Positions 1 through 17,966 of a DNA stretch of 35,162 nt are shown piece by piece. Each line of letters begins with the position of its first letter. Within the stretch, counting starts at the first letter, position 1. The position numbers and the translations under genes were made by a program. Origin of the DNA: Thermoplasmatota archaeon (GTDB lineage Archaea > Thermoplasmatota > E2 > DHVEG-1 > B18-G2); assembly GCA_029259115.1 (NCBI GenBank), contig JAPDJO010000030.1, forward strand, positions 1 to 35,162, read 5' to 3'. The notes beneath the pieces are model-generated. The model did no database searches, was not told the origin of the DNA, and saw nothing but the letters and a program-made list of their open reading frames with translations.

Positions 1-48
1 GTGGAAGCAACAAGAGAAGCGTATGAAAAGACAGAGGTGAAAGCATGA
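1..48 (+). CDS. porG: 3' end of probable 2-oxoacid:ferredoxin oxidoreductase gamma subunit (partial)
   Basis: Frame 1 reads VEATREAYEKTEVKA-stop. Its TGA overlaps the porD ATG (ATGA). This is the porG position in the usual gamma-delta-alpha-beta order. Confidence 0.7.
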   Translation: MEATREAYEKTEVKA

Positions 49-7348: not shown

Positions 7349-7425
7349 GCCTTCCTTCAAATATCGTATCAAAAGCATCTTCTTTGATAGTACTTGAAAG
7401 CGAGATGTGAAAAATTCAAGAAAAA

Positions 7426-7498
7426 TAGCCCCGCCAGGATTCGAACCTGGGTCGCGAGGTCCAGAGCCTCGCATGATTGACCACTACACCACGGGGCT
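7426..7498 (-). tRNA. tRNA-Gln(CTG), no intron, CCA not encoded
   Basis: Minus strand AGCCCCG..GTGTAGTGGTCAATCATG CGAGG-CTCTGGA-CCTCG..CCAGGTTCGAATCCTGG CGGGGCT A folds as a cloverleaf. A1-U72 pair is typical of archaeal tRNA-Gln. A T-run follows. Confidence 0.96.
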
Positions 7499-7501
7499 AT
7501 A

Positions 7502-7574
7502 TGGGCTCGGCCGGATTCGAACCGGCGACCTCCGCGTTGTAAGCGCGACGTCATAACCCCTAGACCACGAGCCC
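7502..7574 (-). tRNA. tRNA-Val(TAC), no intron, CCA not encoded
   Basis: Minus strand GGGCTCG..GTCTAGGGGTTATGAC TCGCG-CTTACAA-CGCGG AGGTC GCCGGTTCGAATCCGGC CGAGCCC A folds as a cloverleaf. Confidence 0.96.
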
Positions 7575-7605
7575 AGCAAAAGAGGAAATAACCAACTATT
7601 ATATT

Positions 7606-9511: not shown

Positions 9512-10042
9512 CTATATATACTCAGACCAGTCTATTTTTCCTACTTTGTATCTCTCATAATCCAGTTTTCCCTCTATTAATTCTTCTGTAATCTTTGCAA
9601 CTTCTTCCACGGTTTTATCGCTGGTATCTATCTCGAAAACTTTCCTTATTCCATGTATCTCTACAGCCTCAGATAGTATTATATCCAAAATCTCAGCCTC
9701 AACATTTTCTTCTATTTTCTCCCATTTCCATCCTTTCTCTTTTAACCTTTTTCTGAGAATATCGGGTCTGCACCTAAGGACGATAACCATATCAGAAAAA
9801 TCTATCAGATGAGAAAGATGTCCCTCGAGGATATAGTTGTTTGGCTTTTTCATAGTCTTTCTAAGGTGATTTTTCAATTTCTCTGTATCTATTATATAAG
9901 AATTTCTCTCTTTATCATGATCCAGCACGAAACCCTTTTCCAAGGCAAGATCGATCAGATTAATCACGTGGTATTTTTTCTCTAGGATTTTAGCTACCGA
10001 AGTCTTGCCGACGCCTGGCGTTCCTGTAAGTGCTATAATCAT
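9512..10042 (-). CDS. Archaeal AK6/Fap7-type adenylate (nucleotide) kinase
   Basis: GTPGVGKT P-loop, hhhEGH motif and KIEENVEAE. Confidence 0.88.
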   Translation of the reverse strand: MIIALTGTPGVGKTSVAKILEKKYHVINLIDLALEKGFVLDHDKERNSYIIDTEKLKNHLRKTMKKPNNYILEGHLSHLIDFSDMVIVLRCRPDILRKRLKEKGWKWEKIEENVEAEILDIILSEAVEIHGIRKVFEIDTSDKTVEEVAKITEELIEGKLDYERYKVGKIDWSEYI

Positions 10043-11334
10043 ACTAATCTATGGTATTCGTAACCATTAAGACCTTCGTGGAAGCAATAATGAACCTTCT
10101 GATAGTCTTTCCTAAATTCTTTTATCTCTTCCCTTATCTTCTTAGGATCTTCCTTATCTATTAAAACCCTTTTCATGAACTCGGCTACATTCTCCATCTC
10201 GCTTTCCTTCATTCCTATCCTTGTTAGCTCTTGCGTTCCTAGCCTTATACCCGATGGATTTAAAGGATCCTTGTCTCCTGGTATCATATTCATATTCGTT
10301 ATTATACCAGCCTCATACAGAAGCTTTGAAGCTTCCTTACCTTTCCCCTCACCAATCCTAACCAATAGCTGGTGAGATTTTGTAAAACCAAGTTTTTCTC
10401 CAAAAACATCAAACCCCCTCTCATAAAGTGCCTGACCAAGCTTTTGGGCATTTTTGATCGTTTGTCTAGCATAATCTTTTCCGAACTGGAGATGCTCAGC
10501 AAAAGCTATTGCCTTGGCAGCTACATGATGCAGATGGTATGAAGAGGTAACTCCAGGAAAAACACCAAAGTTTAATCTCCTTAGGAACTTTTTGTCTTCT
10601 TCTGTATCTCCTTTGTGATCAGATAGTATTACTCCGCCCTGCGGTCCTGGCAGAGTCTTATGAGTCGAGCCAGTCATGACATCCGCTCCTTCTCTTAGTG
10701 GATCCTGGAAATAGCCTGCTCCTATCAATCCTAAAACATGAGCAGCATCGTATACAACATAAGCACCAACCTCATGAGCAGCATCCGCAAGCTCCTCTAA
10801 CGGAGTGGGAAATAGAAAGACAGATTGACCAAATAGAGCCAATTTGGGTTTTACTTCCTTTATGAGCTTGACTGCTCCATCAACATCTATATTCATCTCC
10901 TCATTTCTAAATGGGTAGAATACAAGGTTGATTCCTCTAACTCCGGCTGCTCCCCATTTTCCAAAAGATATATGAGCTCCATCTGCAGTATCGAGAACCG
11001 TTGCAGTCTCTCCAGGTTTTATCAGAGCTTTGAGGACGGCCATGTTTGCTGTGGTTCCTGCTGTTGGTCTGACATCTGCATATTCACACTTGAAGAGTTT
11101 TTTAGCTAACTCTATAGCTTTAAGCTCAACTTTATCGAAAAACTCACAACCCTCGTAGTATCTGTTTCCAGGAGTTCCTTCCGCGTATCTTCCATGAAAA
11201 TCTGATATCAAAACCTCTTTGCATAGTGGCGAGAGAATATTCTCGCTCGCTATCATCGGCAAGGAGCTCGCAAAGAGCTCGTTGTTCTTGATGGTCTGCT
11301 CTCTTACATACAACGCTTCCTTATACCAGTCCAT
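10039..11334 (-). CDS. glyA: Serine hydroxymethyltransferase (archaeal type)
   Basis: IASEN, RYAEG..RYYEG, YDAAH, GSTHKTLPGPQGG (PLP lysine) and SGIRLGT motifs. Start set at ATG 11334, which has a GGTGA SD. Confidence 0.95.
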   Translation of the reverse strand: MDWYKEALYVREQTIKNNELFASSLPMIASENILSPLCKEVLISDFHGRYAEGTPGNRYYEGCEFFDKVELKAIELAKKLFKCEYADVRPTAGTTANMAVLKALIKPGETATVLDTADGAHISFGKWGAAGVRGINLVFYPFRNEEMNIDVDGAVKLIKEVKPKLALFGQSVFLFPTPLEELADAAHEVGAYVVYDAAHVLGLIGAGYFQDPLREGADVMTGSTHKTLPGPQGGVILSDHKGDTEEDKKFLRRLNFGVFPGVTSSYHLHHVAAKAIAFAEHLQFGKDYARQTIKNAQKLGQALYERGFDVFGEKLGFTKSHQLLVRIGEGKGKEASKLLYEAGIITNMNMIPGDKDPLNPSGIRLGTQELTRIGMKESEMENVAEFMKRVLIDKEDPKKIREEIKEFRKDYQKVHYCFHEGLNGYEYHRLV

Positions 11335-11409
11335 ACTGGTCACCAGATTCGAATATGGATGTGACATAAAAAGATGATGGAACAGAGATTTCTCATACCC
11401 ATCGATAAA

Positions 11410-11457
11410 TTTAAATATGTTATGTATATATAACATAATGTTAGAAATACTTAACAT
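11410..11457 (+). promoter_or_regulatory. TATA box (TTTAAATA) followed by two tandem ATGTTA-N8-TAACAT operators
   Basis: TATA at 11410-11417; palindromes at 11417-11436 and 11438-11457; GGTGA SD then ATG 11466. Confidence 0.75.
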
Positions 11458-11465
11458 AAGGTGAG

Positions 11466-11840
11466 ATGATGAATAGGAAGCGATTTGCGATGTGTGGCGC
11501 CGTGATAAGTGCAATTATTGGAGCAATCGTTGGCTACAGTATGCATATCCATAATTTTGTACTTCCATTTGTTGCAGTGACTGCAGGAATTCTAATACTA
11601 CATTTGCTCAGACGAAAAGTGGATGAGGTAATTGAAGATGAAAGGATTTACAGGATAAGCGAGAAAGCATCTAGAAGGGTTCTAGAGATTTTTGGCACAG
11701 GCTCAGCACTCGCAGGAATTACGTTAATCGCACTTGATAAACATCAAGAGGCTGGTTATGCCTTGGCATTCTCCGCATGTGTCTTGATACTATTGTATAT
11801 GGTCTTCTATGCTTATTACAGCATGAGATCCCTGGATTAG
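11466..11840 (+). CDS. DUF2178-like membrane protein
   Basis: Four hydrophobic helices with a central IEDER..ISEKAS motif. Confidence 0.78.
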   Translation: MMNRKRFAMCGAVISAIIGAIVGYSMHIHNFVLPFVAVTAGILILHLLRRKVDEVIEDERIYRISEKASRRVLEIFGTGSALAGITLIALDKHQEAGYALAFSACVLILLYMVFYAYYSMRSLD

Positions 11841-15968: not shown

Positions 15969-16466
15969 TTACTTCTCTTCTGTAATCTCATGGTATTGGC
16001 AAGCTCTGTAATATTTGCATATCAGGTGATGTAATGTTATCTCTCCTATTAGCCTTCCTTTATTGTCGATGACGGCTAACCTTCTGACCCTGTATTTCTT
16101 CATCCTCAATAGTATATCGTATATCTTTTCATCAGCCTTACAAGTTACTGGTCTTTTTGACATGATCTCTTCAGCTTTAGATACCATCCCAAATTGCAAA
16201 GATCTAAGATCCGGTTTTCCGAACATATATGGGGGGAGATGAGGTGGAGAGAGTAAGGATAACAGATCATGCTCAGTTATGACACCTATCAATCTCATAT
16301 TTTTTTTGTCATCAACAACCCAAACGTGATTCTTTCCGCTGACTATAGATAAGATTGTTGCTATGTCGGTATCTTTATCTACGACGGGAAGATCCCAAGA
16401 TCTTCTATCCATCAAATCTTTGACTTTTAGGTTGTAGAATTCTTTTATCAGCCTCTCCTTTCTCAT
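15969..16466 (-). CDS. CBS-pair (Bateman module) protein
   Basis: KVKDLM..VWVVD..LIGVITEHD and AEEIMS..RRLAVID..LIGEIT. TTTAAATA (16497-16490) ends 23 nt before the ATG, suggesting a leaderless mRNA. Confidence 0.88.
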   Translation of the reverse strand: MRKERLIKEFYNLKVKDLMDRRSWDLPVVDKDTDIATILSIVSGKNHVWVVDDKKNMRLIGVITEHDLLSLLSPPHLPPYMFGKPDLRSLQFGMVSKAEEIMSKRPVTCKADEKIYDILLRMKKYRVRRLAVIDNKGRLIGEITLHHLICKYYRACQYHEITEEK

Positions 16467-16534
16467 TGCTTTAAGAGAATGTTGTAGAATATTTAAAATC
16501 TATGACCATCAGCTAGGCAAAGATAGAAACTTAT

Positions 16535-16557
16535 TTTAAGTATAATGAACATACTTA
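16535..16557 (+). promoter_or_regulatory. csp promoter TATA (TTTAAGTA) overlapped by a TAAGTAT-N7-ATACTTA inverted repeat
   Basis: TATA-like 16535-16542; perfect 7-bp arms at 16537-16543 and 16551-16557. Confidence 0.5.
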
Positions 16558-16561
16558 TCCT

Positions 16562-16656
16562 GCAAAAGAGTAGGAACAAAAGAGAAGCCCCGCTTCTTTT
16601 TGTTTCTATTCTTTTGCTAAAAAAACCAGACCTCCAAGGTCTGAGGAGGTGAGTAA
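16562..16656 (+). promoter_or_regulatory. Structured csp 5' leader: 26-bp hairpin plus alternative SD/anti-SD hairpins
   Basis: 16562-16588 pairs with 16592-16617 (2 G-U pairs, 1 bulge). CAGACCT/AGGTCTG competes with ACCTCC/GGAGGT. Confidence 0.65.
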
Positions 16657-16848
16657 ATGAAAGGGGTAGTAAAGTGGTACAACCCAAGGAAAGGCTACGG
16701 CTTCATCCAGGGAGAAGACGGAAAGGACGTCTTCCTGCATAGAACAGAAATACCATTTGGAACCTATCTCAAAGAGGGCGACGCAGTAGAATATGAAGTC
16801 GAAAATGCACCGAAAGGCCCAAAGGCAATACACGTGAAGAAGCTGTAG
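16657..16848 (+). CDS. Cold-shock protein (CspA family)
   Basis: KGVVKWYN, RNP1 KGYGFI, RNP2 VFLH and KGPKA; 63 aa; strong GGAGGTGA SD. Confidence 0.95.
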   Translation: MKGVVKWYNPRKGYGFIQGEDGKDVFLHRTEIPFGTYLKEGDAVEYEVENAPKGPKAIHVKKL

Positions 16849-16953
16849 TTGTTTGGTTCGCTTATAGAACGTCCTTAGGTTAAAAGTCTATTTTTGCTTT
16901 TTATCTTTCTTTTGACAACTTTTAATTACAACTTACTCATTTTTAGCAGAGGA

Positions 16954-17860: not shown

Positions 17861-17868
17861 TGCAAAGT

Positions 17869-17966
17869 TTTAAATAGTTTTGTTACTTACATTTGGTAAA
17901 AAACCTACCAGTGAAAGGGATGCACGTGAGTGCTCTTTTTCATATGGTAGGTGTAGAAGGGATAAA
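17869..17966 (+). promoter_or_regulatory. TATA box and structured 5' leader of the FKBP gene (22-bp hairpin with GNRA loop)
   Basis: TTTAAATA at 17869-17876. 17903-17925 pairs with 17930-17952 (3 G-U pairs, 2 single-nt bulges, GUGA loop). Confidence 0.65.

Follow-up and report, generated by a model that had tools for sequence, protein, structure and literature searches.

A conserved, possibly two-state 5′ leader on cold-shock protein genes of Thermoplasmatota archaea

Structured cis-regulatory RNAs have, to our knowledge, seldom been described in Archaea. A 35,162-nt stretch of DNA from a Thermoplasmatota archaeon (contig JAPDJO010000030.1; hereafter, the window) carries a gene for a small cold-shock protein (csp), and a first-pass annotation had read the leader of this gene as a candidate RNA thermosensor. 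The locus thus raises two questions: whether the leader is a conserved RNA element, and whether temperature is the signal to which it responds.

The closest relatives of the 63-aa protein are 95-98% identical to it and, where named, are cold-shock proteins of Thermoplasmata archaeon. The upstream neighbour, a CBS-domain protein gene (15969-16466), is on the minus strand. Since the two genes are on opposite strands, the region 16467-16656 is a divergent promoter region. The sequence TATTTAAAAT is present at 16490-16499. The CBS-domain gene begins approximately 25-30 nt away, with its start codon at 16466 (minus strand), and this distance suggests that the CBS-domain mRNA is leaderless or near-leaderless, in contrast to the 95-nt csp leader. 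Between 16657 and 19515, csp is followed by genes for a UbiA-family prenyltransferase, an FKBP isomerase and a protein with the C-terminal domain of BpsA (branched-chain polyamine synthase). This neighbourhood has the appearance of temperature-adaptation genes held together. Past the csp stop codon, a T-rich stretch (TATTTTTGCTTTTTATCTTTCTTTTG) was found at 16885-16915 on the plus strand. It is likely the transcript end of a monocistronic csp mRNA.

The best TATA-like box upstream of csp is TTATTTTAA at 16531-16539, with AGAAAC just before it. The predicted transcription start is near 16561 and the leader is accordingly about 95 nt long. The start and the leader length agree with the first-pass annotation, but the box is not at 16535-16542, where it had been placed. 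The leader opens with a hairpin, P1, which has 26 pairs including two G·U pairs (G16570·U16609 and G16574·U16605), one bulged G and a CCC loop (-31.5 kcal/mol). It is followed by the A7 linker, and every coordinate given for these elements in the first-pass annotation matched the sequence. The coordinates of all features are collected in Table 1.

The segment 16556-16675 folds at -45.8 kcal/mol on the plus strand, against a shuffle mean of -24.4 kcal/mol (z -5.9; none of 200 shuffles equalled it), and the fold of the minus strand is weaker (-36.4 kcal/mol). P1 ranked second when the whole window was folded in sliding segments of 70 nt on both strands (14,038 segments), and it is predicted to stay folded to about 85 °C. 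The top-ranked segment, 11226-11295 (plus strand, -35.6 kcal/mol), consists of two G+C-rich hairpins and is antisense in a long minus-strand ORF (10039-11514).

Two other origins of P1 were considered and rejected. Within the window, P1 does not behave as a repeat or mobile element: its arm is present only once with up to three mismatches allowed. A repeat search with a seed of 9 did not list P1 because the G·U pairs and the bulge interrupt the seeds. The P1 5′ arm is also not a mimic of the coding start, by which the U-rich arm could pair with either: the shared words were no longer than those in shuffles (longest 4 nt in the window, where 297 of 300 shuffles reached at least this length; 16 of 49 leaders attained 7 nt).

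Ahead of the start codon, two mutually exclusive folds are available. One is the hairpin P2, which leaves the Shine-Dalgarno sequence (SD) free and belongs to the minimum-energy fold. The other is a masked fold, in which an anti-SD at 16630-16635 pairs with 16645-16650 in a 6-bp helix. The bases 16630-16633 are common to both helices. At 37 °C, the energies are -9.8 kcal/mol for P2 and -9.1 kcal/mol for the masked fold, so that the leader has two exclusive helices of similar stability, as in a bistable switch. Furthermore, the SD is paired in one of the two states, as in an RNA thermometer. Both predicted folds had been proposed in the first-pass annotation, and their complementary bases match the sequence throughout.

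Table 1. Features of the csp leader, distribution of leader classes and predicted accessibility of the SD (positions are those of the window unless a locus is named)
Feature	Position, condition or count	Strand	Remarks
Predicted archaeal promoter: BRE-like AGAAAC and TATA-like TTATTTTAA	16525-16539	+	sequence; spacing in relatives
P1 5′ arm, purine-rich	16562-16588	+	sequence and fold; predicted transcript 5′ end
P1 apical loop CCC	16589-16591	+	fold
P1 3′ arm, U-rich	16592-16617	+	sequence and fold
A-rich linker (T, A7, C)	16618-16626	+	A7 = 16619-16625; A-rich linker conserved in alignments
P2 hairpin, CAGACCT / CCA loop / AGGTCTG	16627-16643	+	minimum-energy fold; -9.8 kcal/mol at 37 °C; SD free ("on")
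P2 arms	16627-16633 with 16637-16643	+	sequence
Anti-SD ACCTCC	16630-16635	+	complementary to GGAGGT 16645-16650; overlaps P2 5′ arm and loop
Shine-Dalgarno GGAGGTGA	16645-16652	+	ends 4 nt before ATG
csp coding sequence	16657-16848	+	63 aa, ATG at 16657; Pfam CSD E 2.3e-20
Leader class, P1 and anti-SD	27 of 81 leaders
Leader class, P1 only	24 of 81 leaders
Leader class, anti-SD only	18 of 81 leaders		short leaders
Leader class, neither	12 of 81 leaders
P1 copies before TFB	L067:195-308, L073:196-308, L058:197-315		R1 matches
P1 copies before TFB	L078:196-311, L069:225-336, L071:202-266		R1 matches
P(SD unpaired), window	0 °C		0.44
P(SD unpaired), window	30-37 °C		0.66
P(SD unpaired), window	65 °C		0.43
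P(SD unpaired), window	85 °C		0.28

To trace the leader in relatives, one genome per species was scanned with an alignment of 45 archaeal cold-shock proteins. A csp relative was encoded in 290 stretches, of which the best 80 were analysed, giving 81 leaders with the window (loci are cited below by number, and WIN is the window). By title, the best 80 of the 290 are nearly all from Thermoplasmatota, and the rest are under other archaeal phyla. Most of the relatives have a common leader design, namely a long hairpin, an A-rich linker and a short hairpin adjoining the SD. The long hairpin, P1, has a purine-rich 5′ arm (consensus CAAAAGGAATAGAAA...) and a U-rich 3′ arm (...TTTTTGTTTTTGTTCTTTTG). 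In most relatives, the P1 apex bears an extension of 20-45 nt; the window has the CCC loop only. Consensus folding of plain MAFFT alignments predicted no structure, because insertions and deletions in the P1 apex break the register. The structure was therefore set by hand from the fold of one member, and the leaders were realigned by covariance models.

In the MAFFT seed alignment of 37 sequences, 84.9% of the cells pair, as compared with at most 62.9% when the partners are slid. Changes on both sides were seen in 6/6 P2 pairs and in only 3/23 P1 pairs; the variation in P1 is mostly one-sided, from A-U to G·U. A search of 270 kb with the covariance model R1 gave 57 matches with E ≤ 0.005. These comprise 51 of the 81 csp leaders and six second copies elsewhere, and 20 of the 57 (14 csp leaders and six leaders of TFB genes, described below) were outside the seed. 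In the alignment of the 57 matches, which was fitted to the model, 87.0% of the cells pair, against at most 62.2% with slid partners. Both-side changes occur in 23 of 33 pairs (95 cells; shuffle mean 31.6), values that were reached in 0 of 500 shuffles, and P2 again shows them in all 6 of its model pairs. Shuffles of this alignment still pair at 80.7%. Since the covariation in P1 is one-sided and the shuffles pair this well, the support for P1 comes from the slide control and from the wobble asymmetry described below. In addition, the leader sequences are related, and thus the counts are of sequences and not of independent events.

For a second model, R2, the window and the four relatives closest to it were left out. 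R2 still matched the window at 16560-16661 with 63.6 bits (E 4.2e-10); L001-L003 scored 56-65 bits and L004 scored 26 bits. With R1 at full scoring, no second copy of the csp leader was found in the window (next plus-strand matches, E > 1).

Across the relatives, P1 cells contain 239 G·U against 39 A·C. Thus, the P1 helix works on the csp strand only, and the first-pass argument for selection at the RNA level, which was drawn from two G·U pairs, is borne out by the relatives and by the weaker minus-strand fold. In P2, the wobble counts (6 G·U, 16 A·C) do not assign a strand. The lower stem of P1 keeps a fixed orientation: in the 57 aligned leaders, purines make up 87% of the 5′ arm and U makes up 78% of the 3′ arm. 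P1 columns are nearly invariant (T in the 3′ arm), although the proteins are only 60-75% identical. Since both orientation and sequence are conserved beyond the needs of a helix, they point to a reader of the sequence.

The promoter is conserved together with the hairpin. In 48 of the 49 model-positive csp loci (L031 is the exception), there is a TATA-like hexamer whose first base lies 22-32 nt ahead of the model match, with a purine-rich BRE-like stretch before the hexamer. The match itself begins 4 nt before P1. This constant distance places P1 at the predicted 5′ terminus of the transcript.

The overlap of P2 and the anti-SD recurs in many relatives. Of the 81 leaders, 47 have a CTCC or CCTC motif in the 40 nt that precede the SD, in most cases at a distance of exactly 13 nt. 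As 1000 shuffles gave a mean of 5.5 and a maximum of 17, the anti-SD is enriched about 8-fold. Moreover, an anti-SD within 25 nt was found in 45 of the 58 leaders with a GGAG-containing SD and in 0 of the 23 leaders with other SDs. Judged from the sequences, the two-state anatomy around the SD is real and conserved.

The anti-SD is scattered over several well-supported clades of a protein tree that is poorly resolved. In the clade of the window (WIN and L001-L004; support 99/98), 4 of 5 members have it. The fifth, L004, keeps P2 through compensatory changes and has a TTCG loop without an anti-SD. Since 24 of the 51 leaders with P1 have no anti-SD, and the close relative L004 is among them, the masking module is dispensable. 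Several genomes possess csp paralogues whose leaders belong to different classes (L006/L013, L012/L015, L028/L033/L035 and L023/L040/L052/L064). Leaders with an anti-SD, with P2 only or with neither were seen within single genomes, and thus the leader types may divide labour in one cell.

P1 is not specific to csp, since second copies lie approximately 100 nt upstream of a TFB gene in six loci of one clade (L058, L067, L069, L071, L073 and L078). A possible seventh copy, L074:1-72 (E 0.55), is missing its 5′ end. The TFB identity was checked in L067, where the ORF 370-1305 contains Pfam TFIIB repeats and a zinc ribbon. In the same locus, a DEAD-box RNA helicase gene immediately follows csp (L067:1809-3005), and no comparable leader fold was detected upstream of this gene (z 0.16).

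A hairpin of similar style precedes the FKBP-type isomerase gene (ATG 17967), two genes downstream of csp in the window. It spans 17903-17952 on the plus strand (-29.9 kcal/mol, z -6.15; rank 3 in the 70-nt scan), and a TATA-like TTTTAAATA (17868-17876) lies about 25 nt before its start. Its arms are purine-rich and U-rich like those of P1 (GAAAGGGAUGC... / ...GCUCUUUUUC), and the csp covariance model did not match it. In 6 of 80 loci (L004, L005, L015, L023, L033 and L045), the sequence retrieved with csp also includes an FKBP gene downstream of it. By single-sequence folds, the hairpin recurs before the FKBP genes of L004, L033 and L045, with bases at the stem foot changed yet complementary. 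In L005 and L015, the arm motifs are conserved by eye only and the folds lack the helix (L015, -11.5 kcal/mol). The FKBP leader of L023 folds poorly (-7.6 kcal/mol).

The effect of temperature was modelled at equilibrium, with nearest-neighbour energies that are rough far from 37 °C. For the window, the predicted change in SD accessibility is modest and non-monotonic, with a maximum at 30-37 °C and lower values in both the cold and the heat (Table 1). Between 0 and 55 °C, the pair probabilities are 0.47-0.68 for P2 and 0.32-0.53 for the masked fold. The direct path from P2 to the masked fold has a calculated barrier of 18 kcal/mol at 5 °C, 13.2 at 37 °C and 8.3 at 70 °C (any rate derived from these has an arbitrary prefactor).

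The relatives behave differently in the model. In 42 of the 43 CUCC...GGAG leaders modelled, no free fold is more stable than the masked fold at 37 °C; the window is the only exception. The two states are within 1.5 kcal/mol of each other in 14 of the 43. Heating from 15 to 65 °C is predicted to free the SD further in 37 of the 45 anti-SD leaders; the SD becomes less accessible with heat in four leaders only (WIN, L041, L056 and L057). For L001-L003, the three closest anti-SD relatives of the window, the model predicts a mostly masked SD whatever the temperature. In most relatives, P2 has only 4-5 bp, and thus a kinetic trap is implausible there. It may also be that a 4-bp CUCC:GGAG helix is too weak to compete with the ribosome.

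In nearly all leaders modelled, the ground state is masked and more strongly so in the cold. This polarity is opposite to that of a simple cold-on sensor and is odd for a cold-shock gene. Therefore, a cold-on function would need kinetic trapping or a trans-acting factor. The thermosensor proposed in the first-pass annotation is supported in part, as a conserved two-state leader. As a temperature sensor, it is plausible for the window but not favoured by the modelling of most relatives, whose predicted polarity is the opposite. An attempt to place the organisms on a temperature scale by amino-acid composition was discarded, since the formula gave about 71 °C for the window and 13 to 67 °C for small groups of loci.

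We compared the leader with known systems. In Rfam 15, no family matched at the gathering score within 16400-16900, thermometer families included; adjacent tRNA-Gln(CTG) and tRNA-Val(TAC) genes at 7425-7575 (minus strand) gave the only such matches in the whole window. The best sub-threshold match was mir-268 (25.3 bits against 47). The cspA thermoregulator of Escherichia coli (RF01766) scored 12.2 bits against the leader (gathering score 78; E 0.79; model positions 37-222 of 428), so the independence from the cspA element that had been suggested at first holds. As in E. coli, the leader (16562-16656) is placed before an ORF with a cold-shock domain. The two systems are also alike in having a long structured csp leader in which alternative folds alter access to the start, and a 5′-proximal stem combined with a short hairpin immediately before the SD. 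In enterobacteria, the parts for comparison are the "cold box" and the "upstream box". The cold-box stem of cspA and its refolding are described in PMC9411577. However, the two share no homology of sequence or structure, and they belong to different domains of life. The archaeal leader is 95 nt long against about 160 nt, follows an archaeal promoter and has an explicit anti-SD in place of a global refold. The temperature response of cspA has been demonstrated, whereas that of the archaeal leader is a prediction in silico.

Zipper-type thermometers such as ROSE and fourU likewise mask the SD in a short helix, and in most relatives of the window leader this helix is predicted to melt with heat. 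However, these thermometers control heat-shock or virulence genes, whereas here the gene is csp and P2 competes with the masking helix. Bacterial 5′-terminal stabiliser hairpins, e.g. that of ompA, resemble P1 in that a stable helix lies at or beside the first transcribed base. Unlike P1, which is conserved with a fixed purine-rich/U-rich orientation, they are not known to be conserved in sequence across distant species. In Archaea, cold-responsive mRNAs with long 5′ UTRs are described for Methanolobus psychrophilus in PMC5378194. As presented there, these leaders belong to other genes and another lineage and rest on alternative start sites. The same paper reports that neither a conserved motif nor a cold box had been found, whereas a conserved covarying motif is defined here for the csp leader. 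According to PMC9585477, CspA was gained by Thermoprofundales. Full-text literature searches, with subscription journals outside their coverage, returned no archaeal csp leader element or RNA thermometer, in agreement with the first-pass statement that no archaeal counterpart had been characterised. From the comparative sequence data, the csp leader is a new conserved archaeal element with a candidate cis-regulatory function.

On balance, we think it probable that the window leader is one instance of a lineage-wide, structured 5′ leader of Thermoplasmatota csp mRNAs, hitherto undescribed, that acts post-transcriptionally, by a 5′-end hairpin (P1) and a switch made of P2 and the anti-SD. Transcription would start at or beside the base of P1, as the promoter spacing indicates, and the mRNA would therefore begin with a very stable hairpin of 26 bp. 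Such a base-paired 5′ end would be expected to shield the mRNA from 5′-end-dependent decay. A factor may also read P1, to judge from the strict asymmetry of its purine-rich and U-rich arms and from its recurrence on TFB leaders; the U-binding cold-shock protein itself would be the obvious candidate. Ahead of the SD, the RNA would take either P2 or the anti-SD:SD helix, with the SD presumably open to ribosomes in the former. P2 would be made before the SD; in the window, it is predicted to be as stable as the masked fold, with a high barrier between the two. Since P2 is complete before the SD is transcribed and the barrier is high, P2 could stay trapped in the cold and equilibrate in the warm. 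A drop in temperature would then lead to more translation through the persisting P2. Temperature, the level of the RNA chaperone, or both are candidates for the signal.

An autoregulatory operator is compatible with this switch and differs in what is sensed: the cold-shock protein, and not temperature, would bind the U-rich 3′ arm of P1 or melt P2 and thereby exert feedback. Cold-shock proteins are known from bacteria as RNA chaperones that prefer U-rich single strands, and bacterial Csp proteins act on the 5′ UTRs of their own mRNAs. For this reason, autoregulation deserves to be taken seriously, as an alternative or in addition. It would account for an arm orientation that is kept far beyond the needs of pairing, for both-side changes that are as scarce in P1 as they are general in P2 (seed alignment) and for the reuse of the same P1 sequence on TFB leaders. 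The masked ground state of nearly all leaders modelled also fits a design that is opened or reset by a chaperone. However, a passive chaperone may be unable to open the helix of -31.5 kcal/mol in which the U-rich arm is enclosed, and the binding preference is carried over by analogy from bacterial proteins. We regard autoregulation in place of temperature sensing as a possibility, though not a probable one. Alternatively, the leader may be a passive design, in which P1 serves only to stabilise the 5′ end of a strongly expressed mRNA, P2 only keeps the U-rich arm away from the SD and CUCC is loop sequence that is tolerated. The 5′-terminal position of P1 in 48 of 49 loci, its predicted persistence up to about 85 °C, the many P1 leaders without an anti-SD and the modest predicted change in SD access in the window are consistent with this design. 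An enrichment of the anti-SD of about 8-fold over shuffles, its fixed 13-nt spacing and its dependence on the SD type are against it. Furthermore, stabiliser hairpins need no conserved sequence, whereas P1 is near-invariant among proteins of 60-75% identity. We consider a purely passive leader unlikely.

Two further readings concern transcription and the DNA itself. A terminator-like site with a T-rich tail was flagged at 16579-16601 by a bacterial consensus, and the T-rich stretch past the csp stop is of similar composition. The apical hairpin of P1 and the U-rich arm could thus form a premature terminator with modulated read-through. However, sense-strand runs of T5 or longer are not avoided in long ORFs of the window (35 in 25.1 kb, near the estimate from base composition), and therefore such tracts are unlikely to be strong terminators in this organism. 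In addition, L002, L003 and L004 have T4 only. An attenuator is thus very improbable in our estimation. As for the DNA, the inverted repeat lies beside a divergent promoter region and could be a palindromic operator for a transcription factor, or P2 and T7 could serve as an antisense terminator on the minus strand, where the bacterial consensus flags a site at 16644-16626 followed by T7 to 16619. The wobbles of P2 give no strand and so leave room for this reading. However, the wobble asymmetry of P1 and the worse minus-strand fold oppose it, and the spacing of the P1 arms varies by tens of bases in relatives, which a dimeric DNA binder would not tolerate. The leader also lies downstream of the predicted start and accompanies csp and its promoter irrespective of the neighbouring gene, and no minus-strand gene converges on P2 in the window. 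We give a DNA-level element hardly any credence.

The preferred reading, a post-transcriptional leader with a 5′-end hairpin and a switch at the SD, could be part of a wider system. Thermoplasmatota would mark a small set of mRNAs for temperature adaptation (those of csp, a TFB paralogue and an FKBP-type prolyl isomerase) with a shared kind of 5′-terminal hairpin, to which csp adds a bistable switch of P2 and the anti-SD. This would be the first archaeal RNA cold sensor, independent of cspA and read by both temperature and the cold-shock protein. We offer this extension as a tentative proposal and, taken as a whole, a rather doubtful one.

A motif with covariation support, the leader occurs in dozens of genomes from a lineage that is widespread in sediments. 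Its natural variants, with or without the anti-SD and with or without P1, are usable as mutants. Since the modules are clear and such variants exist, archaeal cold-shock control can be tested directly in vitro, although the organisms themselves are uncultured. If the wider proposal is true, the shared purine-rich/U-rich hairpin would be the archaeal counterpart of the bacterial "cold box".
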